Origin: an uncultured delta proteobacterium
GTDB taxonomy: Bacteria; Desulfobacterota; Syntrophia; Syntrophales; UBA2185
Reading direction: 5' to 3'
Assembly (NCBI GenBank): GCA_963695875.1
Contig: CAVOID010000004.1
Location: forward strand, 128,001-192,000
DNA length: 64,000 nucleotides
Below are positions 2-12,843 of this stretch, piece after piece; within the stretch, counting starts at the first letter, position 1; every line of letters begins with the position of its first letter. The notes beneath the pieces are model-generated. The model was not told the DNA's origin, made no database searches, and saw nothing but the letters and a program-made list of their open reading frames with translations. Position numbers and translations under genes: made by a program.

Positions 2-334
2 GAAATCGCCCGGGAAGTCCGGCGACTGGCGCAGGGAGCGCGGGACGACACGCTGACGGTGGACGAAGTGACGGGCAGCACCTTCACCATCACCAACCTG
101 GGCACCTATGGCATTGACGGCTTTACGCCCATCATCAATTCGCCGGAGGCCGCGATCCTGGGTGTGGGCCGCATCGTCGAGCGGGTGGTCGTCCACGACG
201 ACCAGATCGCCCGGCGGAAGATGATGGTGCTCAGCCTGACAATAGATCATCGCCTGATTGATGGCGCGACGGGCGCCGAGTTCATGCGGTCGCTCAAGGA
301 GATGATAGAGAATCCGTACCGGCTGCTTGTGTGA
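2..334 (+). CDS. Dihydrolipoamide acyltransferase (E2) C-terminal catalytic domain, 5'-partial
   Basis: TFTITNLG, FTPIIN.PE.AILGVG and DHRLIDGA catalytic motifs; ORF is open to the window edge. Confidence 0.92.
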   Translation, partial: EIAREVRRLAQGARDDTLTVDEVTGSTFTITNLGTYGIDGFTPIINSPEAAILGVGRIVERVVVHDDQIARRKMMVLSLTIDHRLIDGATGAEFMRSLKEMIENPYRLLV

Positions 335-372
335 GGATTGCCCGGTGGATGTGCAACCGGAAAGCTTGAACC

Positions 373-1444
373 ATGGACACCATTCGCTTGCTTGACCTGG
401 GGCTTGTTTCACCGATTCGTTCGCAAACGATTTACCACGCCGTTGCCTACGCGCTTGACGAGAATACGCCCGACACGATCATTCTCGTCGCACCGACCGA
501 GCCGTATGTCTGCATCGGATTTCATCAGGAACTCGAAAAAGAAGTAGATGTCGAGTACTGCCGCGCGCACGGCTTGCCGATGGTTCGACGCGAAGTTGGC
601 GGCGGCGCGGTGTATCTCGACAAGAACCAAGTGTTTATGCAATGGGTCTTTCACCGCGACGCGCTGCCGCGCGACATTAACGATCGCTTTGCGCTGTACG
701 TCAAGCCGCTCGTCGAAACGTATCACGCGCTTGGCATCCCCGCGAACTATCGTCCCATCAATGACGTGCACGTGGAGGGCAAGAAAATCGGCGGCACAGG
801 CGCGGCGCAGATGGGCATGGCCGAAGTCGTCGTCGGCTCGCTGATGTTCGATTTCAATTTCGAGGTGATGTCGCAGGTGCTCAAGGTCTCGTCGGAAAAG
901 ATGCGCGACAAGATTTTCCAGTCGCTCAACGAGTACATGACGACGATGACGCGCCAGCTCGGCCATACGCCCGACCGCGACGCCGTTATCAAGATTTATC
1001 TGGAGCAGGCGCAAGCCGCGCTCGGACGCCCCATCGTGCGCGGCGAGCCGACCGCCAGGGAGCTTGCGCGTGCAGAGGAACTTGACGAGCAATTTGCGAC
1101 GGACGAGTGGCTGTACCAAAAGGGGGGCTTGCGGCAAGCCGGAGTCAAGATTCACCAGGATGTACGCGTGCGGGAAGTGGCTTCGAAAACACCGGGCGGC
1201 CTCGTCCGTGTGACCGCTCGGGTGCGCGACGGGCGGATTGACGATGTGACGCTCTCCGGCGATTTCACGATGCTGCCCAAGTTCGCGCCGGGCGTGCTCG
1301 AACTGGCGCTGCGCGGGACGGCGTTGGAAGCGAGCGCCGTCCAGGCACGCATCGAAGATATGTATCGCAGCATCGCCATTCAATCACCAGGCCTGACAAC
1401 CAGCGATTTAACGAAACGCCATCATGCTTCTCGCGCAGACGTGA
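373..1444 (+). CDS. lplA: Lipoate-protein ligase A family protein (probable indel near 1415; likely true stop TGA 1442-1444)
   Basis: RREVGGGAVY, NDVHVEGKKIGGTG motifs; C-terminal accessory domain (KTPGGLVRV...LSGDF). Confidence 0.85.
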
Positions 1445-1483
1445 GGCTTTGGAGACCTTTGCAGAATTTTTTCGGAGGTTTTT

Positions 1484-2851
1484 ATGCCAGATATCATCGT
1501 CATCGGAGGAGGACCGGGTGGGACTGCCGCCGCGACTCGCGCCGCGCAGTTTGGCGCGCAGGTGACCGTGATTGAGCGTGCGCACCTGGGCGGCAACTGC
1601 GTCAATAACAACTGCATCCCCTTGACCAGCCTGCTGGCGAGCGTCGAGTTGCACCGGCGCATCGGCCAGGCCGGTGACATGGGCATCCAGGTAGGACCCG
1701 CCTCGCTCAATGTGCCCGGAATGATTGCTCGCAAGGATCGCATCGTTCAAGATTTGCGCGAGGGGATAGCGGGCCTGCTGCCGACCTTTGGCATCGAGAT
1801 CGTGCAGGGCCAGGCCCGGCTCGTGGATGCGAAGACGGTCGAAGTAGATGGACAACGCTTGCAGGCAACCCGAGCCATCATCCTGGCGACGGGGGCGCGG
1901 TGGGCGCCGTTGCCGCATGGCGTGGAGGATGTCCTGCGGCCCGACGAGGCGGTCAAGCTCGACTCGGTGCCGGTCCGGTTGCTCATCTGGGGTGGGGGTG
2001 CGTCTGACATCGAGTTTGCCACATTGTATGCCGCGCTGGGCAGCCAGGTAACGCTCGCCGTGGACGGGCCATACCCCTTGCCCCTGGAAGATTACGAAAT
2101 CGGCCAGAGGCTCCAGAGCATCTTGCAGAACCAGGGCATCCAGGTGATAAGCGACGTCCGCGTCAAGTCCGCGACGCGCACCGGCGGCGGGTTGGATGTC
2201 ACCCTGTCCGGTTTGAAGGGCGAGACTCCAGTCGTGGTGGACAAATTGCTATGGGCAGGTCGCGTCCCGGCGATCGACGGGCTGGGGCTGGAGCAGGGAG
2301 GTGTCAAACTGAACGACGGCGCCGTCATCGTGGACGACCGTATGCAGACGAGCGTGCCGGGCGTCTATGCCCTGGGCGATCTGACCGGCGGGCGGATGTA
2401 TTCCTCGCTGGCAACGGCCGGGGGACTGGTGGCCGCGGAAAATGCGATGGGACGCAATCGACGCCTGGATCAGCGCGCGGTGCCGCGCTATGCGTTCTCG
2501 ATCCCAGAAGTCGCTGCCGTCGGCCTGACCGAAGACGAGGCGACAGACAAAGGCTACGACGTTGAGGTCGCCAATATCGCCTACGGGTCAAGCCCGCGAG
2601 CAATGGGCCTGGGCGAGGTCGAAGGCGGCATCAAGTTCGTCGCTGACCGCAAACTGGGCAAGGTCTTAGGCGTTCACATCGTCGGACACCGGGCGACAGA
2701 ATTGATCGCCGAAGCAACACTGGGTATCCAGCTAGAAGCCCTGGCTGAGGATTTTGCGTGGGCTATTCGGATTCACCCGACGCTGAGCGAAAGTATGGTG
2801 GAGGCCGGGCGAGCGATCCTTGGCCAGGCGTTATACGTGCCCAAGTTCTAG
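1484..2851 (+). CDS. Dihydrolipoamide dehydrogenase (E3)-like flavoprotein, divergent
   Basis: GGGPGG FAD motif, CVNNNC redox disulfide, [17 protein letters not shown]. Confidence 0.85.
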
Positions 2852-2866
2852 CATATGTTCACGTTG

Positions 2867-2944
2867 TGTCATTTCGACCGCAGGGAGAAATCTTTTTCGA
2901 TAATATTGAAGATTTCTCAATCACTCCGTTCCTTCGAAATGACA
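2867..2944. repeat. REP-like palindromic intergenic element (GTCATTTCGA...TCGAAATGAC)
   Basis: Outer arms TGTCATTTCGA/TCGAAATGACA and inner arms GAGAAATCTT/AAGATTTCTC; related copy at 15901-15960. Confidence 0.65.
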
Positions 2945-2991
2945 AAATGGTAGTTGTGCAAAACTGTCAAAAGGAATTTGAAGGAGCGAAC

Positions 2992-4548
2992 GTGCCTTCT
3001 AATGAATCAATCCATCTCGTTCGTATGGGGCGAGTCCCCTACCGCCATGCATTGCGTCTCATGCAGCTCATGGGAGACGCCCGCCGTCGGGGTGACATGG
3101 GCGATGCGCTGCTTCTCGTCGAGCACCCGCCGGTCATCACGCTGGGTTGCGCAGGCGGAAACGAAGACTTGCGTGTATCCTCTGACTATCTCCGGCAACT
3201 CGGCATTGAAGTCGTCCCAACCGAGCGCGGTGGACGAGTGACGTATCACGGCCCGGGCCAACTGGTTGTTTACCCAATCCTGAAATTGGCGAACGATGAC
3301 CTGCATGATTATCTGTGGCGATTGGAGCAGGTCGCGCTGGAGGTTCTGAACGAATGGGGCATCGCCGCCAGGCGTTTAGAGCGGCACCCGGGCGTCTGGA
3401 TCGGACGAGACAAGATCGCGGCGGTAGGCGTGGCGGTGCAGGATCGGGTGACGACTCACGGACTGGCGCTCAATGTTGATCCCGACATGGCGCACTTTCA
3501 GTTGATCATCCCGTGCGGCTTGAGCAGCCGGGGCGTCACATCCATGCGGGCAGTCCTGGGGCAGCCAGTGGCGATGGAGGCAGTCGAACACAGTTTCGCT
3601 GCTGCCTTTAGCCGCGTGTTCATGCGCCAGGTCGCGCCGCGTCTGATGCCCGGGCCATGGCTGGTTGCTCCCGCGCCCCAGGAAGCGACGGCGAGCATTG
3701 AGCAATTGGTCGACGATTTGAGTTTACATACTGTTTGCCAGGAAGCCGCCTGTCCGAACATCGGTGAATGTTGGGCGCGGGGCACGGCCACGTTCATGCT
3801 GCTCGGCAATGTGTGTACCCGTTACTGTCGCTTTTGCAACGTGAAATCCGGCCACCCGCTTCCGCCCGATCCACAGGAGCCTTTCCGTGTCGCCGAGGCG
3901 GCTGCGAGAATGGGCCTGCATCACGTCGTCCTCACCTCGGTCACGCGCGACGACCTGCCCGATGGCGGCGCCGGCCAGTTCGTCTTAACCATCCAGGCCA
4001 TTCGTAACCGCTTGCCCGGCACGACGGTCGAGGTACTTGTTCCCGATTTCGGCGGGTCGCTCCCGGCTCTGGACACTGTGGCCGCCGCCCGGCCCGATGT
4101 GTTCAATCACAACGTCGAGACCGTCGAGCGGCTGTCGGACAAGGTGCGAGCCAAGGCCGAGTATCGCCGCTCGCTGGCCGTGCTGGCCTGGGCCAAACAG
4201 CGAGGACTGACGACCAAATCAGGGTTGATGGTCGGCCTGGGCGAGACTTGTGGTGAAGTGATCGAGACAATGCGCGACCTGCGCCACGCCGGTTGCGACA
4301 TTCTGACCATCGGCCAGTATCTTCAGCCGACGAGCCGGCAAATCGAGGTGGCCGATCACGTCCACCCGGTCGTGTTCGCGTGGTATCGTGAGGTAGGCCA
4401 GTCCCTGGGTTTTCAAATGGTCATGGCCGAGCCGTTAGTGCGCAGTTCGTACCATGCAGAAGAAGTCCGGGCAGGGAAAATGATGCCCGGTGTTTTCAGT
4501 TCAGGAGCTGTTTGCAACTCCAAAAGCAGTCTGTGCAAGGAGGGATAA
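2992..4548 (+). CDS. Fused octanoyltransferase (LipB) - lipoyl synthase (LipA)
   Basis: LipB motifs [36 protein letters not shown]; LipA motifs [27 protein letters not shown] start after AAGGAG. Confidence 0.9.
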
Positions 4549-4551
4549 ACA

Positions 4552-5350
4552 ATGGACATGGGATTAAAAGGAAGGGTAGCGCTGGTCACCGGGGCCAGCC
4601 GGGGCATCGGTAAGGCTTGCGCCCTGGTACTGGCCGGAGAAGGGTGCGACGTGGCCATCTGCGCTCGCGGTAAGGAAGCCTTAGAAAAGGCGGCAGAGGA
4701 GATCAAATCCAAGGGGTTGCAGGTCCTCGCGGTCCAGGCAGATGTCGCTAGACCGGAAGACATCAAGAGCATGGTGGCCAAGACCATCGAAAAGTTCGGG
4801 CGCATTGACGTCTTGGTGAACAATGCCGGAACAGGCCGGTTGAGCGACTTGATGCAACTTCCCGAGGAAGAGTTCCGTTACAACATGGACCTGATGTTCT
4901 TCGGCCTTATCCAGTGCTCCAAGGAGGTCGTCCCGTTATATGCGCAAGCAGGGCTGGGGACGGATCATCAATATCTCCTCGATCTTCGGGAAGCAACCGG
5001 GTGGCCTGGTGGACTATGACTCTATCAAAGCGGCCGTGATCATGTTCACCAAGGATCTGGCCAACTATCTGGCCAAGGATAACATCCTGGTAAACGCTGT
5101 CTGCCCCGGGCCCATCCACACACCGCTGTGGGAGGGTCCCGGACAACTGGGTGAGCAACTGGGCAAGCTCATTGGGATGTCAGGGCCGGAGGCCATTGAC
5201 TGGTTCGCCAAGCAGAACATCCCCCTGGGACATCACGGCGATCCGGAAGATATCGCCTGCATGGTGGCCTTCCTGGCCTCGGAGAAAGCCAAGTTCATCA
5301 CCGGGCAGGCGATCAATGTAGATGGTGGGATGGTGAAGACTCCAATCTAA
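4552..5350 (+). CDS. SDR family NAD(P)-dependent oxidoreductase (frameshift near 4938)
   Basis: TGASRGIG, NNAG, YDSIK, CPGPIHT, ITGQAINVDGG across two overlapping ORFs. Confidence 0.88.
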
Positions 5351-5438
5351 CTCCCCATCCATCTAAAGTCTTCACCTGAAGGTGAGGGTTTTTCTCCCAA
5401 TCCCCGAGAGACAATAAAAAGGTGTACCAGCGGCAGAA

Positions 5439-6903
5439 TTGAGAGAAGACGTGTCGATAACATTCCCTACCATTCCGGCTGACCGCGTGACCGAGGACGC
5501 CATCGAGCGCAAGCTGTATTCGCGCGACCTGGCCCCTGTCCCGGCCATCATGGTCAAGCCGTTTTTCCGAACGCTGCCCGATGCCGTCATCCGGCCCGGC
5601 ACCGCCGAGCACGTGGCCGAGGTGATGCGCCAGGCCGCGCGCGGGCGCATTCCGGTCACGCCCCGCGCCGCAGCCAGCACCAGCTACTATAACTCCGTGC
5701 CCGTGCGTGGGGGATGGGTGCTGGATGTGAATGACCTGCGCGATGGAATCGAGCTGGACGCCGCGCGGCAGACCGTTCGAGTGCTGCCGGCCACCACCTG
5801 GTTTGATCTGGATGACGCCTTGCAACAGAGGGGCTTTGCCGTCAAGTCGTATCCGTCGAGCGCGGTCTCGGCGACTGTCGGCGGTTGGGTGAGTATGCAG
5901 GGGCACGGCATGGGCAGTCTCAAGTACGGCGGAGTGGGCGAGCTACTGATCAGCTTGCAAGTGGCGCTGCCGAATGGCGAGTTGGTCACCGTCACGCGCG
6001 AAAGCGATCCGCCGCTCGACTGGTTCGTCGCCGCCGAAGGCACCCTGGGCGTGATCACCCAGGTTGAACTGACCATCCGCCCGCGTCCTGCCGCTGAGTC
6101 TCATCACCTGTTCGCCTTCGATGACCTGAACACACTCGGCCGGAACGTCGTCTCGCTCGCCCGCGCTGAGCCACGCCCCTTCACCGTCTTTTTCGCCGAC
6201 AGCGGCTACCTGCGCCTGCTGGCGCGCGCCGGGTTCCACATTCCGCTCGACTTGCCGCAGTCACATTTTCCTGTCAGCGAGAAAGGCTTGCTCCTGGTAA
6301 GTTTCCAGGGCGAGCCGTCTGAAGTCAATCAGGGCAAAGACAGGCTGACCCGTGTGGCGGGGTGCGAGCTGTCTTCCGACCTGGCGCTGGAGGAATGGAA
6401 TACTGCGCCTGTATCACCTGCGAGCCAAGCGTGCCGGGCCATCGCTGTTGGCCGCCGAATCGTGGCTGCCGATAGACGCGCTGCACCACTACCTCAAGTC
6501 GGTCAAGGCCCTGGCCGAACGCAGCCGTTTGCTGATCGGCACCTATGGCCTGGCCGTCGCGCCGGACATGGCCCTGGTCATGTCTCTCTATCCGACCGAC
6601 GAGCGACACACAGTAAAATACCTGGCGGCGCTTGGATTCACCAAGCGGTTGCACGACCTGGCCGCGCGCTATGGTGGGTGGCCCTATGGTGTCGGGCTGT
6701 GGAACTCGGCCTACCTGCCTCGGTTGTTCAGCCGGACTCGATTGGCCGAGCTCAAGCGGCGCAAGGCGCGGCTTGATCCGTCGGGCATCATGAATCCAGG
6801 CAAGTTGTATCAGGCGTCGTTCCCGTTGTGGCCGATCACGTTTGGCATAGGAGCTGCAGTGCTTGGCGCGGCGCACGTCGCGCTGGGGAGGGAGCGGCCA
6901 TGA
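5439..6903 (+). CDS. FAD-binding oxidoreductase, GlcD/VAO-like (frameshift near 6400)
   Basis: PDAVIRP, SATVGGW, GSLKYG, AEGTLGVIT, C-terminal DPSGIMNPGK. Confidence 0.82.
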
Positions 6904-8052
6904 AGGATCAGTCATTTTTCGAAGGACTGATGGCCGAAGCAGTCATCTGCGCTTACTGCGGCTATTGCCGGGCGGTCTGCCCGACCTACGCGGGCGTCGG
7001 CTGGGAATCATGTTCGCCGCGCGGCCGCATTCAACTCACCCGGCTGATCATGGAGGGAAAGCCGCCGAACGCAGAGCAGATGACGCGGCTCTACCAATGC
7101 ACGCTGTGCGGACACTGCACCCAGGTCTGCTCAACGCGCATTGATCTGCGCCAGTTCTGGCTGGAGGCGCGCAGGCAAACAGTCGCGCGAGACCTGTCGC
7201 CCCAAGGGTTGGCGGCGGCGCGCGATAACATAACCAAGACCGGCAACGTCTATGGCTACCCGAACGACGAACGGGCCGGCTGGGTCGAGTACATGGATGA
7301 TGCCCCCGCCGATCTCTACCAACGGGATCAGGCCGGGATGGTCTACTTTGTCGGCTGTTTGACGTCATTTTCGCCGCGCGTCCAGCGCATCGCCGAGTCG
7401 TTCGTCCGTGTACTCGATGCCGCCGGGGTGGATTTCACGATCCTGGGCGAAGGCGAAGTCTGCTGCGGCTTTCCGCTGCTTGCCGCCGGGATGCATGAGC
7501 AGGCGCACGCGGTGATTGAGCGCAACCTGGAACATGTCCGCGCGATCGGTGCAACAACCATCGTCTTTAACTGTCCGGCCTGCCGGATGATGTGGCTTGA
7601 AGAATACGCTCGCCATTTGCCCGGCGTGCGGCTGCTCCACTCGACCGAGTTGCTGGCCGAGTTGGTAGCTGCCCACCGGTTGCCGATGAAGGATGTAAAA
7701 CGAATAGTCACGTACCACGATCCGTGCGACCTGGCGCGCAATGGCGGGGTGTACGATGCGCCGCGTGCGGTGCTGGCGGCAATCCCGGGTCTGCAGCTTG
7801 TCGAGGTACACGAGCGGCGCGAGCGTGGGCTGTGTTGCGGCGGCGGCGGCGACCTGGAAATGGTAGACCCGGCGTTGTCCGGGCGCGTGGCGGCGCGAAC
7901 GGCAGGCAAGCTGGCTGCAACCGGCGCACAGGCCATCGTGACCGCCTGCCCACAGTGCGTGCGGACGTTGACGCGCGGAGCGGAGCAAACCGCTCCTGAT
8001 CTCGACGGTGAAAGACATCGTAGAATTGCTGGCCGAGGCCCTGGACAAGTAA
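6900..8052 (+). CDS. (Fe-S)-binding protein with 2x4Fe-4S and CCG domains (GlcF/HdrD-like); frameshift near 8005
   Basis: CAYCGYCRAVCP, CTLCGHCTQVC, FVGC, CCGFP, YHDPCDLAR, CCGGGG, TACPQC; ATG overlaps the upstream stop. Confidence 0.88.
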
Positions 8053-8062
8053 GGAGGTCGGT

Positions 8063-8509
8063 ATGGCCCAAGTCGAAGGAATCAATTTGCCGGATGAACT
8101 CTACTACCATCCGGATGATCACCTGTGGGTGCGCATGGAAGGCACACGGGCAACCGTTGGGCTTGAACGACCTGGCCCAGCGATCAGCCGGAAAGGTGAG
8201 CGCCGTCCGGCTCAAGCCGCCGGGCCGGCCCATTGCCAAGGGCAAACCGTTCGGAACGATGGAAGCGGGCAAGTACGTCGGGCCACTCAGAGCGCCCATC
8301 GCGGGACAGGTGATCGAAATCAACTCGGAGGTCATGAGCACAGCCGGGCTTGTTGAACTCGGATCCATACGGCAAAGGCTGGCTGATTCTCATCGAGCCG
8401 GAGAATGCAGCGCGCGATTTGCCCGAGCCTGGTGCATGGCGATGCCACTCAGGCGTGGCTGGAGAAAACCATCGCCGATTGGCGCAAACGAGGATTACTG
8501 AAGGATTAA
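8063..8509 (+). CDS. Glycine cleavage H-like lipoyl carrier protein (LbpA-like); frameshifted
   Basis: LPDELYY...HLWV, TMEAGKYVGPLRAPIAG (lipoyl-Lys), NSDPYG.GW, reconstructed across indels. Confidence 0.8.
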
Positions 8510-8521
8510 GGAGGTGTTGAC

Positions 8522-8563
8522 ATGGCATTGAAAGCAGCATTTATTTTCGTGGCGCTTTGTTAA
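8522..8563 (+). pseudogene. Truncated gene start (MALKAAFIFVA), recalled as resembling DUF6506-family N-termini
   Basis: Strong RBS AAGGAGGTG, 13 codons, then stop at the compositional boundary. Confidence 0.45.
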
Positions 8564-8589: not shown

Positions 8590-8625
8590 ATAAAGGGGCT
8601 GCGATTTGCAGCCCCTTTATTTTTT
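8590..8625 (+). terminator. Intrinsic terminator
   Basis: ATAAAGGGGCTGC-GATTT-GCAGCCCCTTTAT followed by a T-run. Confidence 0.8.
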
Positions 8626-8928
8626 AAAACCTTCGTCCAGGCACTTTTTGATCACTGATCCACGTATAACTTTCTTCTCCTAATCCCCAACAGATAAACT
8701 AACTTCCGCAATCAGTCTCACCCATCTTGATATCATCATGCAGGATAAGGGTTTCCACCTATGGCCACCTGTGAATGGAATGTATTTTAGAATCCTGTCC
8801 CTAAATTCTGCCGGTAATACATTTTAACGAACCTCAACTCCTTCCCGTGGATGTAATTGAAGATGCCCTGACTGACCAAGTGGCTTATCCACCACATTCT
8901 GCAAACGTCGTAGCCACCGCCATCCCCT

Positions 8929-9302: not shown

Positions 9303-10333
9303 ATGACAGAGGCTCTCAATTTTATTGGAGAACTTGAGGCTAAGGTTGCGGAGCAACTGAAGGCGCAGCGCGTCGGCTACCTTCTCGGAGCTGGTTCGTC
9401 GTACTTGGACAATGCCGGATACCCGCTCGCGTTCGAGCTCTGGGATCTCATCAAGGATCGGATCGTCGACCCGCAGAAGCGTGCGACATTCAGGCCAAAC
9501 TCGACGGCGGGGCGACGGGAATCGAACACGCCCTCGACCTGCTCGACGACGGTGGGGCAATGGACACGCCGTATCGGCATCTGGTGACAGCGGCCATTGC
9601 GGACTTGTTCCTCCCTAAGAACCCAAGTCTCGATCTGCACGTTGAGTTCGTGCGTCGGCTGTCCCAACGTCGCGGACCCGTGCGTAAAGGTGTTCAGCCT
9701 CAACTACGACCCGCTGGTCGAACGCGCGGCGGAGGCCGCCAAGGTCCGGGTATCGGACGGATTCCTCGGCGTGGAGCATGCCTATTTCGACCCGGCAGTG
9801 TTCGAGGAGCGCATTGGTCGGATTCGCGGCACACACAAGGGGCGCCAGTTCGACGAGACAGTGAAGCCGATTCACCTCTTGAAACTTCACGGCTCGCTCG
9901 GCTGGTATGAATGCCCAACACGGGGAGTGCGGCGTTGTGCGTTTACGGGTCGGCACCGCCACCCGGCACGAAGCGGCTGATGGTGCCACCGCAACGCAGG
10001 AAAGCGACTGACACGATGCTCCCGCCTTACGCCGCACTCTGGTCCGCCTTTCGCGGATGCTTGGGCCACAATGCGAATCCGATCAACCGCTTGGCCTGCT
10101 TCGGATACGGCTTCGCTGACGAACACGTGAACGCCGTCATCGAGGCCGCACTGGCGCGGACGGATTTCACTTTGCTTATCTTCACGAAGGCGCTGTCCGA
10201 CACGGCCTGGAATCGCTGGAGCGTCAAGACGAACGCGGTTGTGGTGACGGAAACGCGGTGCTCGCTGAAAGGGACGGTCGGACCCGGCCATACCGACCTT
10301 TGGCGCTTTGAACGACTCTGCAAGGAGGTCTAA
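9303..10333 (+). CDS. SIR2-like (SIR2_2) NADase of a SIR2-HerA defence system; about 3 frameshifts
   Basis: LLGAGSS, FSLNYD, LLKLHGS, GYGFADEH motifs across overlapping frames. Confidence 0.88.
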
Positions 10334-10336
10334 CCA

Positions 10337-12030
10337 ATGCCCGATACTCCCAATACCGTGATCGGCCACGTCGTCGATGTCCAAGGAAACCTCCTCATGG
10401 CGACCTTGGTCGAGGACGAACAGGGACATGCGCCGACCGTTACCATCGGCGATGAGGATGTGTTGGTCGGGCAGCTTGGCTCGTACGTCGCGGTCAAGCA
10501 GAACGATGTTCACCTCATCGCCATCGTGACTCGCATGACCGAACAGGAAGCGCTCGCCGCGCCGACCATCGAGACGCCTGGCGACGATGCCGCGAGATTG
10601 CCCTTCGCCAAGCGAATCGCCCGACTCACGCCCGTCGGCTCGATTCTCGCGGACGGCCAGTTCGAGCGCGGCGTTGCGCGGTACCCGACCACGGGGGCGG
10701 AGGTCCACGCGATTGGCTCAACCGACGTCGCCAAGATGTTCGACCGCTTCCAGTCGAAGGGCCTTGCGGTCGGCACGCTCGCATCGCACCCCTCGCTCAA
10801 GGTCTGTCTGGACCCCACAAACCTGTTCGGGCGGCACTCTGCCATCTTGGGGCAGACCGGGTCGGGAAAGTCATGGACGGTGGCTTCCCTTGTGCAGAAG
10901 ACGGTCGCGGTGATGCCCAGGGCCCACATCATCATCCTCGACTTGCACGGCGAGTATTGCTGGAAGCGACCCGACGGGACGCACTCCTACGCGTTTGCTG
11001 ACGCCATCGTCCGGCACGTCGATGCGCGCGAGCTGGAGATGCCTTACTGGTTGATGACCTACGCGGAACTCTGCGACCTTCTCATCGAGCACAGCGAGAG
11101 GGAGGCCACAAACCAGACTGCGTTCTTTCGTGACTGCTTACTGGAGGGACGGCAGCAAGAGAACACCACCGCCACTCCCGCACTTGGCTTGGCAAGAGTC
11201 ACCGTGGACACGCCGATCTACTTCTCTCTTGATGACATCTTGACCAAGGTGCGCGCAAAGAACGTGGAGCGGGTCGGCAACAGGCAGGGGCCCATGTTTG
11301 GTGACTTCGATCGCTTTCTGATGCGGATCGAGAGCAAGCTCAACGACGTCGCGATACGACTTCTTGCTCAAACCCAAGAGCCGCAACACATCGGCTTCGC
11401 TGTCGGACCTGCTCCGAGACTTCGTCGGGCTTGGCACCAAGAAGGTCGCGGTCACGGTCATCGACCTCAGTTCAGTGCCGTTCGACGTGCGGCCCACGGT
11501 CGCGGCGCAGATCGGCCGCTTGGCGTTCGAGTTCAACTACTGGAACCCGCAGTACCGCGAGTTCCCGATTCTACTCATGTGCGAGGAGGCGCACGCGTAC
11601 ATCCCCCGCGCCGCCGAGAGTCAGTTCGCTGGCTCGCGGAAGTCGATGGAACGGATCGCCAAGGAGGGCCGGAAGTACGGCGTCGGGCTTGCCGTCGTCA
11701 GTCAGCGGCCCCACGAAGTCTCCGAGACGGTGCTTGCCCAGTGTGGAACGTTCATCTGTCTGCGGATCACCAACCCCGACGACCAAGGCTACGTCCGGAG
11801 CCTCGTGCCCGAGAGCGAGGGCGACTTGGTCAGCGTTCTGGCGGGCTTGGGCCGGGGTGAGGCGCTTGTTCTTGGGGAGGCCGTCCCGCTGCCGACTCGG
11901 GTTCAGTTCGATAAGCCGAGTCCCGGCACCCAACAGCGACGACGTGGATTTCTACGCGAAGTGGAAGGACGGACCGACGGACTTGGACGTGGATGAGATC
12001 GTCAAGCGCTGGCGCAGTCAGGAACGGTAA
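10337..12030 (+). CDS. herA: HerA/DUF87 ATPase; 2 frameshifts
   Basis: N-terminal HAS-barrel-like region, Walker A GQTGSGKS, DLHGEY, Walker B EEAH, RIAKEGRKYG, SQRP. Confidence 0.9.
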
Positions 12031-12074: not shown

Positions 12075-12842
12075 TAAAGGGGACGGTTCTCTTTAGTTGA
12101 CAAAGGTGGTAATGCGATGGTACATTTAAAACATGCCGAGGACAGCAAGAGTAGCTCCCAAGGAGCATGTCTATCATGTACTGACACGAGGGAACAACCG
12201 TCAGGATGTATTTGAGGACGAGGATGATTTCAGAAAATATCTGGACCTGCTCTTTCGCTACAAAGAGAAATACCATTTTAAGCTGTATCACTACGTTATG
12301 ATGACCAACCATGTGCATCTGGTCATTGAGCCTTCAGAAGGAGGTGGCGGTTTATCCGAAATAATGAAAGGGATTAACCTGGCCTATGCCCGGCATTATA
12401 AGCGCAAATATAGTCATACGGGACATTTCTGGCAGGACAGATACAAGAGCATTATCATTTCAAAGGACGAGTATCTGCTTGCCTGCGGCAGCTATGTGGA
12501 ATTGAATCCTGTACGGGCAAAGATGGTGGAAGACCCGAAGGATTATACATGGAGCAGCTATCGGGCGTATGCTTACGGAAAGAGGGATGTCCTTTTAGAT
12601 GAGCATCCTGTTTACCTTCAGTTGTCTGAGGAGGAAGGAGAGCGGCGGAAAAAATATCGGGAGTTTGTACGAGGAATGCTCAAAGAGAAAGAGGCGATGA
12701 AGGGGGAAATGGACAGGCGGATAGTGTATGGCGGTGAGGATTTCGTGAAAGATATGACGACGACCTATAATATTTCTGAAAAGATAAAGCGGATGGGGCG
12801 ACAAAGAGGATGGAGGAAAAATAAAGAGAACCGTCCCCTTTA
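12075..12842. mobile_element. RAYT element bounded by 21-bp perfect inverted repeats TAAAGGGGACGGTTCTCTTTA
   Basis: 12075-12095 and 12822-12842 are exact reverse complements; each is an imperfect hairpin. Confidence 0.82.
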
Positions 12843-12843
12843 A
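12133..12843 (+). CDS. REP-associated tyrosine transposase (Y1/HUH)
   Basis: YHVLTRGNNR, MTNHVHL (HUH), FWQDRYKS, YVELNPVRA. Confidence 0.92.
   Translation: MPRTARVAPKEHVYHVLTRGNNRQDVFEDEDDFRKYLDLLFRYKEKYHFKLYHYVMMTNHVHLVIEPSEGGGGLSEIMKGINLAYARHYKRKYSHTGHFWQDRYKSIIISKDEYLLACGSYVELNPVRAKMVEDPKDYTWSSYRAYAYGKRDVLLDEHPVYLQLSEEEGERRKKYREFVRGMLKEKEAMKGEMDRRIVYGGEDFVKDMTTTYNISEKIKRMGRQRGWRKNKENRPL

Follow-up and report, generated by a model that had tools for sequence, protein, structure and literature searches.

Protein-bound lipoate serves as the swinging arm of the 2-oxoacid dehydrogenases and in the glycine cleavage system; more recently it has emerged as a partner of Hdr-like complexes in sulfur oxidisers. 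The present work concerns a co-oriented operon of ~13.4 kb in the genome of an uncultured delta proteobacterium, which encodes a GlcD-fold flavoprotein, an Fe-S protein with two CCG domains and a GcvH-like lipoyl carrier (hereafter the trio) in company with lipoylation enzymes and the E1 and E2 subunits of an apparently acetoin-dehydrogenase-type complex. The window, by which we mean the whole stretch of 64,000 nucleotides that was analysed (G000:C4:128001-192000, i.e. contig C4 of the bin G000, which amounts to 2.86 Mb in 16 contigs and is 82.6% complete), carries the second half of this operon at positions 2-8563. As set out below, the trio points to an undescribed lipoate-dependent redox enzyme.

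Several described systems resemble parts of this locus. In the sHdr-LbpA systems of Hyphomicrobium denitrificans and Thioalkalivibrio, as outlined in those parts of PMC6067878 and PMC10332631 that we drew on, a GcvH-like carrier is likewise tied to CCG Fe-S proteins and to dedicated lipoylation enzymes. The first-pass annotation of this DNA had drawn that parallel, and it was right as far as the carrier, the CCG protein and the lipoylation enzymes are concerned, but Pfam scans recovered no HdrA, no separate HdrB and no HdrC in the operon or in the 18 kb upstream, and there are no sulfur-oxidation or sulfur-transfer genes here. The window's CCG protein is a single HdrD/GlcF-type chain that comes with a GlcD-fold flavoprotein in the context of an acetoin operon rather than of sulfur oxidation, and the sHdr-LbpA assembly set (Lpl(AB)-like, LipS1, LipS2-like and LipT-like) is found only in a sister clade (clade B, see below), whereas the window's own clade has LplA and a LipB-LipA fusion. 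The analogy is therefore one of resemblance and not of membership.

HdrD of HdrDE and EtfD (9ojn; the relevant passages of PMC13083937) share with the window's CCG protein a pair of [4Fe-4S] motifs of the ferredoxin type ahead of two CCG domains. HdrDE, whose substrate is CoM-S-S-CoB, possesses a membrane cytochrome b partner, HdrE, whereas Pfam scans found neither a cytochrome b nor any other membrane subunit in the window operon. The flavoprotein shares the two-domain FAD_binding_4/FAD-oxidase_C fold of D-2-hydroxyacid dehydrogenases (mouse LDHD, D-LDH 9qgz and LctD), and E. coli GlcDEF is likewise partnered with a Fer4 and CCG subunit; unlike these enzymes, the window family has an invariant 'PYGxGxWN' and a lipoyl carrier that is either attached or adjacent, together with an N-terminal family motif, 'Y-x-R-D-L-A-P-V-P'. 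Finally, the classical aco clusters (acoXABC of Cupriavidus and Pseudomonas, as far as described in the sections of PMC10107126 consulted, and that on plasmid 1 of Paracoccus) share with the operon E1alpha, E1beta, AcoX, E2 and an SDR or butanediol dehydrogenase, as well as, in relatives, a sigma-54 regulator. None of the clusters compared has a GcvH-like carrier with FAD and CCG proteins, and the window operon adds LplA and the LipB-LipA fusion. In the literature searched, which omits most subscription journals and supplements, we found no description of a module of GcvH, GlcD-like and CCG genes, or of an acetoin operon that carries these genes.

The trio is a conserved unit

Metagenome contigs from JGI/ENA were scanned with two family-specific flavoprotein motifs, which yielded 165 pattern matches, 106 relatives and 80 loci that were kept; these and five genome loci were annotated by BLASTP against the operon proteins of a relative (G016) and extra clade-B proteins. 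A flavoprotein match was present in 82 loci, with 29 belonging to the window's clade (clade A, >=55% identity) and 53 to clade B (<55%, most of them 37-47%). Among the 52 loci having both a full-length flavoprotein and an adjacent CCG gene, 47 possess a same-strand GcvH gene no more than 1.2 kb away. The five without an adjacent GcvH comprise three contig ends (L116, L154 and L192), one locus with an intervening SDR gene (L194) and one from which the carrier is absent (L182). This co-occurrence is far beyond chance. The first-pass annotation had named an absence of co-occurrence elsewhere as refuting its proposal, and the genes do occur together elsewhere.

The flavoprotein is matched at E <= 1e-60 by 16 proteins of >=854 aa. 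Thirteen of these (953-1405 aa, 44-48% identity, some of them named Anaerolineae) unite in one chain the domains GCV_H, FAD_binding_4, FAD-oxidase_C, Fer4 and CCG, two have the FAD, Fer4 and CCG parts without GCV_H, and one has the FAD domains only. Five proteins were scanned with Pfam, and the triple fusions among them have the domain order GcvH, FAD, Fer4, CCG; P0124 has a single carrier domain, P0130 has two and P0131 three. Both 'PYGxGxWN' and the two CCG doublets are retained in the fusions. An additional protein labelled 'partial' (P0109, 702 aa) extends into the first ferredoxin motif and is thus a truncated member. Tandem carrier domains ahead of a catalytic body are the swinging-arm architecture of E2 proteins. 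We regard the tandem-carrier fusions as the strongest evidence that the three window genes would make one enzyme in which the lipoyl arm is the presumptive mobile group; as natural single-gene constructs, the triple fusions also open this question to direct experiment.

A tree of 84 carriers unites the carrier of clade A with that clade-B carrier which is encoded upstream of the FAD gene (98/86 support), in a group that is separate from three housekeeping GcvH proteins and from the second clade-B carrier. The gene content of the two clades, counted over loci that show both an E2 and a flavoprotein (13 in clade A and 28 in clade B), is given in Table 1. The usual order in clade B is E1alpha, E1beta, AcoX, E2, CMD, LipB, LipA, GcvH, FAD, CCG, DUF6506, LplA-like, a second GcvH, Lpl(AB)-like, LipT-like and two radical SAM genes. 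The latter match LipS1 (230.7 bits, cut-off 230) and, below the cut-off of 270, LipS2 (221.9 bits); the LipT-like gene matches the geranylgeranyl reductase family, and the CMD protein has an AhpD core domain with a CxxC motif. These data support the view that the flavoprotein, the CCG protein and the GcvH-like carrier are one functional unit, tied to lipoylation enzymes and to an E1/E2 system. The first-pass annotation had spoken of an FAD/SDR substrate; the SDR is a variable and not a core member of the operon.

Table 1. Gene content of clade-A and clade-B loci that show both an E2 and a flavoprotein gene.
Gene	Clade A	Clade B	Remark
GcvH	12/13	28/28	
CCG	12/13	28/28	
LplA or LplA-family	11/13	26/28	
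E1alpha	8/13	26/28	
E1beta	8/13	27/28	
AcoX	12/13	17/28	
E3	11/13	0/28	
CMD (AhpD-like)	1/13	28/28	
SDR	6/13	7/28	positions vary
LipS-like radical SAM pair	0/13	22/28	
LipT-like	0/13	12/28	
DUF6506	5/13	16/28	

A small protein of Lin0512_fam, whose function is unassigned, occurs in 16/28 clade-B and 4/13 clade-A loci and travels with these operons as DUF6506 does; the position of both (L147:2641-3006, L018:14808-15164) differs between the two clades.

The E1/E2 part is of the acetoin dehydrogenase type

The edge of the window falls inside the E2 gene, and retrieval of the upstream sequence, for which the first-pass annotation had called in its search for E1 subunits, uncovered on the same strand DUF6506, E1alpha, E1beta, an AcoX-like protein of NAD-kinase fold and the N-terminus of E2. 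The full gene order is thus DUF6506, E1alpha, E1beta, AcoX, E2, LplA, E3, LipB-LipA, SDR, GlcD-fold flavoprotein, Fer4 with two CCG domains, and GcvH-like carrier. In Pfam the E1 subunits match E1_dh (321 bits) and Transket_pyr with Transketolase_C. The best NCBIfam match of E1alpha is of the pyruvate dehydrogenase type (368.8 bits, under the cut-off of 393.85), as is that of E1beta, which tells the type of E1 and not its substrate. The E2 portion in the window is 95% identical to residues 325-434 of the G016 E2, its N-terminal part with the Biotin_lipoyl and E3_binding domains lies upstream (in L004), and the DHRxxDG motif is seen in the G016 orthologue. It is the only 2-oxoacid_dh gene found in the bin.

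Between E1beta and E2 lies the gene for the AcoX-like protein, which carries the Pfam NAD_kinase domain and is 39% identical over 98% of its length to an 'NAD(+)/NADH kinase', the first gene of a cluster on plasmid 1 of Paracoccus denitrificans PD1222. The order there is acoX, E1alpha, E1beta, 'acetoin dehydrogenase dihydrolipoyllysine-residue acetyltransferase', SDR, CMD, 2,3-butanediol dehydrogenase and a sigma-54 regulator, and rpoN is a neighbour of the cluster. A PAS/sigma-54 activator was found in 10/28 clade-B loci. Pelobacter carbinolicus has a lipoate synthase gene in its acoABCLS operon, which is a precedent for such a gene inside an aco operon. In Alcaligenes eutrophus and Pseudomonas putida, acoXABC operons are under RpoN/AcoR control according to the part of PMC10107126 used here. 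With a heterodimeric E1 of the thiamine diphosphate type, AcoX beside E1 and E2, and an E2 that has both a lipoyl domain and DHRxxDG, this part of the operon can be assigned to the acetoin dehydrogenase type. The link between the trio and an E2-dependent dehydrogenase envisaged at the outset stands, with the amendment that the type of dehydrogenase, left open at that time, appears to be this one.

The CCG protein resembles a catalytic Hdr subunit

The CCG protein has two [4Fe-4S] motifs and two complete CX(n)CCGX(m)CXXC motifs, as in HdrD, and all 18 of the corresponding Cys (8 in the ferredoxin motifs and 10 in the CCG motifs) are invariant in 45/45 sequences. Its best match in the PDB is mycobacterial EtfD (9ojn_A, E 9e-38), with a weak match to HdrB (E 7e-5). 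In the passages of PMC13083937 that treat these proteins, the two noncubane clusters of Hdr are solvent-accessible and cleave the heterodisulfide, whereas in EtfD the first motif has Thr539 in place of its second Cys, so that its cluster is a linear [3Fe-4S] one, and the coordination of the other cluster is completed by His583, 'making it non-catalytic'. Opposite the Cys-Thr-Gly of EtfD our alignment shows Cys-Cys-Gly in the window family, with Ala at the position of the capping His583. On these grounds the CCG subunit looks like a catalytic Hdr and not like an electron wire.

The carrier differs in score from an ordinary H-protein: its G016 orthologue reaches 107.3 and 80 bits against GcvH cut-offs of 117 and 115.85, and on Pfam GCV_H the domains of the two GcvH proteins native to the host reach 156 and 128 bits. 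Its lipoyl Lys aligns with that of pea H-protein, and Lys70 is invariant in 45 sequences. The genome has a gcvT-gcvH-gcvPA-gcvPB-lipA-lpd cluster on contig C10, where a second gcvH and an LplA-family gene are also found. The first-pass annotation had seen no GcvP or GcvT in the visible part of the run; this holds, and both genes are absent from the operon's upstream genes as well. The operon is not a glycine cleavage system.

A proposed lipoyl-arm-dependent oxidoreductase

We propose, with a probability of roughly 60%, that the trio constitutes one lipoyl-arm-dependent FAD/Fe-S/CCG oxidoreductase that serves the acetoin dehydrogenase as an NAD-independent outlet. The carrier would be lipoylated by the operon's LplA or LipB-LipA, and its lipoyl-lysine arm would be the mobile redox group. 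The two Hdr-type CCG sites probably interconvert the dithiol and disulfide of the arm, the two [4Fe-4S] clusters would wire the CCG site to or from the FAD, and the GlcD-fold FAD subunit would be the second redox site. The trio could in this manner link the Aco complex, through its dihydrolipoyl/lipoyl pool, to some acceptor that is not NAD+, beside E3, with the carrier exchanging reducing equivalents with E2 either directly or through E3. The lipoylation of the carrier, the action of CCG on the lipoyl disulfide, the direction of the electrons, the partner of the flavin and the contact with E2 are all points that we infer from sequence. A rationale for a second outlet lies in the inhibition of E3 at high NADH/NAD+ ratios, a constraint on the lipoyl-dependent complexes of anaerobes.

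If this proposal is correct, the pairing of a lipoyl carrier with Hdr-type CCG domains would extend to the carbon metabolism of uncultured anaerobes in peat and sediment, and a dehydrogenase complex would have a second, non-E3 route for its lipoyl electrons. We know of no substrate assigned to the CCG domains of HdrD/GlcF-like proteins in most bacteria, and the lipoyl arm would be a candidate physiological disulfide substrate for these proteins.

Several observations weigh against such an outlet. The clade-A operon already encodes an E3 with intact motifs, so that a second outlet is not obviously needed. The lack of E3 in 28/28 clade-B operons is suggestive only and is not evidence of replacement, because classical proteobacterial aco clusters such as that of Paracoccus are also without E3 and with CMD, and the two relatives with clade-B-like matches that were examined (G032 and G023) have Lpd elsewhere; the same facts weaken the notion that the AhpD-like CMD substitutes for E3 in clade B. 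A quinone link is unsupported except at the outlier locus L182, and no acceptor-binding feature of the flavoprotein was identified. The trio also stands without E1/E2 within 10 kb in a few clade-B loci (L150, L160, and also L127, L156 and L182). In L160 the Lpl(AB)-LipT-LipS genes are followed by an iron alcohol dehydrogenase and a class-II aldolase; L182, which has no carrier, has UbiA, polyprenyl synthase and UbiE-like neighbours; and in L127 and L156 there are restriction-modification genes upstream and the contigs end inside the flavoprotein. The metagenome contig L150 (1762-12638) has the same parts in a different wiring: next to a GcvH-like gene it encodes a multihaem cytochrome c, two CCG proteins of which one is HdrD-like, a GcvH protein with two domains and a fusion of GcvH with FAD. 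Lastly, the clade-B trio sits among genes of lipoate assembly (LipB, LipA, Lpl(AB)-like, LipS1/LipS2-like and LipT-like), a setting that also suits a role in assembly.

Such a role would make the FAD/Fe-S/CCG protein an accessory that gives electrons to, or handles the dithiol state for, a lipoyl synthase acting on a GcvH-like relay that passes lipoate on to E2. Conceivable analogues are LipT in the sLpl(AB)-LipS1/S2 pathway and the GcvH relay of Bacillus subtilis, as presented in portions of PMC10332631 and 10.1101/419234, respectively. The trio is always beside lipoylation genes, which are LplA and LipB-LipA in clade A, and LipB, LipA, two LplA-family genes, LipS1 and the LipS2-like and LipT-like genes in clade B; one genome (G032) has a compact contig of LipA-GcvH-FAD-CCG-LplA, and in L160 the assembly genes are still adjacent where E1/E2 is missing. 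On the other hand, fusions with one to three tandem carriers resemble catalytic swinging arms and not a transient intermediate, clade B carries LipT-like genes alongside the trio, and the host is already equipped with LipA, one LplA-family gene and two genes for GcvH. Most users of LipA moreover do without the module, which is rare (0/400 in the same-phylum sample and 3/401 in the Chloroflexota sample, see below). We consider an assembly accessory unlikely.

A flavoprotein with a remodelled active site

When the window itself is read, its flavoprotein shows both motifs of the family, 'IGTYGLAVAPDMALV' and 'PYGVGLWN'. An AlphaFold2 model (predicted local distance difference test, pLDDT, 83.8; predicted TM score, pTM, 0.85) was compared by Foldseek, and the top matches were mouse LDHD (8jdc), D-LDH 9qgz and LctD (7qh2_C) with TM scores of 0.71-0.75; with AGPS included, TM scores were 0.69-0.75 and identities 17-26%. 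In mouse LDHD (mLDHD), as reported in the portion of PMC10589216 on its active site, His398, His405 and Glu442 bind Mn2+, the substrate is held by Arg347 and His443, and replacing any of the five residues by alanine yields an inactive enzyme. In a profile alignment the mLDHD segments 'GHVGDGNFH' and 'GEHGIGL' stand opposite 'YGhvvtperA' and 'GrpYGvGlW' of the window family, so that H405, E442 and H443 align with Ala, Arg/Pro and Tyr and are lost in both clades. The equivalent of H398 is kept in the clade-B consensus and is Leu in clade A ('GTYGLAVAPDMALV'), and an Arg of the family aligns with the carboxylate-binding R347. The sequence 'Y416-G-x-G-x-W-N' is invariant in 45 sequences, and P415 nearly so. 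No Cys of the flavoprotein is invariant among these 45, which makes E3-like dithiol chemistry at the flavin unlikely.

A quick tree of 18 family rows (every third alignment row and three FAD parts of fusions) and 16 GlcD-like paralogues separates the two sets with a split support of 98. The paralogues, none of which is characterised, were picked from 80 loci returned by a separate pattern search of genome contigs in which one motif was generic to the GlcD superfamily; these loci are paralogues of 23-32% identity and are uninformative on the trio. The ESM Atlas returned only generic 'D-lactate dehydrogenase family' clusters. A hydrophobic C-terminal helix (residues 468-482 in the model) is conserved and is kept in the fusions between the FAD and Fe-S parts. 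We considered it as a transmembrane anchor and rejected this, since in the fusions it sits between two cytoplasmic domains; a monotopic association is conceivable. Taken together, the flavoprotein belongs to a separate family that lacks the catalytic residues of D-2-hydroxyacid dehydrogenases and has a remodelled active site.

As pure speculation, the loss of the carboxylate and metal site could be explained if the trio were a lipoyl-tethered aldehyde dehydrogenase that captures acetaldehyde released by AcoAB. The dihydrolipoyl-carrier and acetaldehyde would give a hemithioacetal, i.e. a 2-hydroxy compound without a carboxylate, which the flavin would oxidise to S-acetyl-dihydrolipoyl-carrier; the electrons would pass via the two [4Fe-4S] clusters to the CCG site and reduce another lipoyl disulfide, by which the dithiol would be restored, and AcoC would pass the acetyl group to CoA. 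In this way two acetyl-CoA would be formed from acetoin without free aldehyde, and both redox sites would serve the same swinging arm. We hold this to be very unlikely.

An ordinary FAD/Fe-S dehydrogenase of D-lactate, glycolate or another 2-hydroxyacid (of the GlcD and GlcF or the Dld-II type), standing beside a spare GcvH that is used for lipoyl relay, is extremely improbable. JGI does label family members 'glycolate oxidase', there are weak NCBIfam matches to GlcD, GlcE and GlcF, the fold equals that of LDHD, D-LDH and LctD, and the Arg aligned with R347 of mLDHD is present. The scores, however, are far under the cut-offs (98.6 bits against 567.9 for GlcD and 99.8 against 333 for GlcF), the metal His-His-Glu and the catalytic His, whose alanine mutants in mLDHD were inactive in the study cited above, are replaced family-wide, the family splits from the 16 GlcD-like paralogues, and in 13 proteins a carrier is fused to the enzyme. 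The first-pass annotation had made its proposal contingent on the FAD/CCG pair not grouping with ordinary glycolate or lactate dehydrogenases, and the FAD protein does stand apart as a family without their catalytic residues.

The operon is a recently transferred island

The operon has a G+C content of 0.58-0.64 in a genome of 0.466. With the CCG protein as query against 40 relatives, orthologues of high identity were found only in G004 (96%) and G016 (90%); two genomes of the same genus (88% and 98% complete) yielded only paralogues of <=31% identity, and G032 and G023 gave 41-44%. With the flavoprotein as query at E <= 1e-90, none of 400 other sampled genomes of the window's phylum matched, and at E <= 1e-80 three of 401 in a Chloroflexota sample did. 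Two of these three genomes (G803 and G522) have E1alpha, E1beta, AcoX, E2, E3, LipB-LipA, FAD, CCG and GcvH, with 63-87% protein identity to G016. A direct repeat of ~52 bp is present at both ends of the operon, with its upstream copy around G000:C4:123142 (about L004:13130-13181). The contrast in G+C, the patchy occurrence among relatives, the Chloroflexota operons and the bracketing repeat indicate a recent horizontal transfer of the island, for which a G+C-rich, Chloroflexota-like donor is likely. The island would accordingly document the recent passage of a 13-kb metabolic operon, complete with its own cofactor-attachment enzymes, from Chloroflexota-like donors to another phylum. The operon begins with the DUF6506 gene, and what the downstream copy of the repeat contains is the ribosome-binding site of this gene plus its first 13 codons; the repeat may be the trace of a duplication or insertion of the island.

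Past the operon, window positions 9303-11996 hold a SIR2-like gene that frameshifts divide into three pieces and, after it, a HerA helicase gene in two pieces (PADLOC SIR2 and HerA matches), at a G+C of ~0.62 like that of the island; this appears to be an anti-phage pair broken by the same kind of indels as discussed below. Just beyond the G+C-rich stretch is a gene for an IS200-type Y1 transposase (12133-12843; Y1_Tnp, 61.8 bits).

Frameshifts in the window are probable assembly errors

When read with translation table 11, the window shows an SDR split into two open reading frames (ORFs), an LplA that overlaps E3, a flavoprotein ORF that stops early, and CCG and GcvH joined in one ORF of 557 aa (6828-8501). 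For reference we used the intact operons of G016 and G004, which belong to other genera of the same family and are 93.4-94.4% identical in nucleotide sequence over ~13.1 kb. Every operon gene is intact in both, with CCG (a 407-aa ORF) and GcvH (147 aa) as separate genes. Relative to them the coding sequence has nine single-base insertions and no single-base deletion; two are in the upstream part of E2 and seven are inside the window, at ~1413 in LplA and at the six sites marked in Table 2.

Metagenome contigs from three DNA runs (peat, mostly 95-99% alike) and one RNA-library run have exactly one letter fewer at each of the seven sites. The one-letter gap is supported by all depth shown per site, the sole exception being one RNA-run contig at 8426. 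Its position differs by 1-2 bases between contigs at 6402/6404, 8164/8166 and 8340/8341, and it lies at 1417 for the LplA site and at 4935 for the SDR site, each time in contigs of 3 runs. Other genes of the bin are likewise fragmented, including those for formate dehydrogenase and gcvP. Since both the relatives and the independent metagenome contigs are without all seven insertions, we read the frameshifts as assembly errors that are private to this assembly. The fusion of CCG and GcvH in table 11 is an artefact, and the carrier is a stand-alone protein, as the first-pass annotation had described it.

That the nine +1 frameshifts are real and the operon a set of pseudogenes in this organism is the least credible alternative of all: it could appeal to the nine insertions relative to two relatives, to the foreign character of the DNA (60% G+C against 46.6%) and to the adjoining broken SIR2-HerA pair and IS200-type transposase gene, but there are nine insertions and no deletion in a coding sequence otherwise 93-94% identical to intact relatives, unrelated nearby genes (formate dehydrogenase, gcvP) are broken alike in the pattern of an indel-prone assembly, and contigs of three independent DNA runs (95-99% alike) are without the seven window insertions, which is strong and not final evidence, as these contigs may be from sister strains.

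In the metatranscriptome run X17, contigs 90-95% alike cover parts of E2, LplA, LipB-LipA, the flavoprotein and the CCG gene; being those of a relative, they are not proof of transcription. Upstream of the island (L004:7254-11748, G000:C4:117254-121748) are the formate dehydrogenase-N-type genes, with the molybdopterin subunit in at least three pieces, the Fe-S subunit in two, and a cytochrome b. This fragmentation suits an indel-prone assembly, and one of the breaks could be a selenocysteine codon.

Anatomy of the operon in the window

Genes were called from an ORF listing (table 11) with Pfam and NCBIfam scans, and their coordinates were set by tblastn of intact orthologues and three-frame reading (Table 2). 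The eight genes named in the first-pass annotation (E2, LplA, E3-like, LipB-LipA, SDR, FAD, CCG and GcvH-like) are present as one run on the + strand in the order given there.

Table 2. Features of the window's part of the operon (positions are those of the window).
Feature	Position	Strand	Evidence and remarks
E2 3' end (acoC-type dihydrolipoyl acyltransferase)	2..334	+	Pfam 2-oxoacid_dh, 154 bits; gene start at G000:C4:127028 (L004:17028)
LplA-type lipoate-protein ligase with C-terminal accessory domain	373..1444	+	LplA-B_cat, 130.6 bits; Lip_prot_lig_C
E3-like dihydrolipoyl dehydrogenase (acoL-type)	1484..2851	+	Pyr_redox_2, Pyr_redox_dim
Intergenic insertion between E3 and LipB-LipA, 120 bp	2858..2977		not in G016/G004 operons
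LipB-LipA fusion (octanoyltransferase and lipoyl synthase)	2995..4548	+	LplA-B_cat and Radical_SAM in one ORF
SDR oxidoreductase, non-core	4552..5350	+	adh_short halves in two frames; one extra base at ~4936
GlcD-fold flavoprotein	5439..6903	+	Pfam FAD_binding_4 and FAD-oxidase_C; one extra base at ~6402
HdrD/GlcF-like Fe-S protein	6897..8052	+	Fer4_8 and two CCG; one extra base at ~8004
GcvH-like lipoyl carrier, separate gene	8063..8509	+	GCV_H; three extra bases at ~8165, 8341 and 8427
Direct repeat of ~52 bp, second copy (ribosome-binding site and first codons of DUF6506 gene)	8510..8561	+	exact seed and alignment of both copies
Terminator-like stem-loop at operon end	8590..8630	+	14-pair stem with 7 G-C pairs, then TTTTTT

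LplA scores 143 bits on TIGR00545, under the cut-off of 280, and the E3-like protein scores 389.5 bits on TIGR01350 (Lpd), just under 408.8; the CxxxxC and HPxxxE motifs of the latter are kept both in the window's own translation and in the G016 orthologue. The LipB-LipA fusion matches LipB (NF010925, 181 bits) and lipoyl synthase (NF004019, 387.7 bits) in NCBIfam and has both the Cx4Cx5C and the CxxxCxxC motifs, and the two proteins are likewise fused in G016, G004, G803 and G522. The SDR is intact in G016 (265 aa), and its NCBIfam matches are many and near-equal, including butanediol and acetoin reductases, with none specific. In G004 a beta-keto acid cleavage enzyme of the BKACE family and an M42 peptidase are encoded between the SDR and the flavoprotein gene (L017:10915-13136), and this junction evidently tolerates cargo.

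Thirteen further sites, spread over 8 contigs of the bin, match parts of the 120-bp insertion (2857-2946) with 75-100% identity, and the insertion looks like a small dispersed repeat similar to a miniature inverted-repeat transposable element (MITE). In another genome, G040, which offers a further instance of a GlcD/CCG enzyme neighbouring a lipoyl carrier, an 876-aa FAD-CCG fusion with 34% identity to the flavoprotein is encoded directly upstream of gcvT-gcvH-gcvPA-gcvPB and beside trimethylamine-methyltransferase-like genes (L020:8575-15834).

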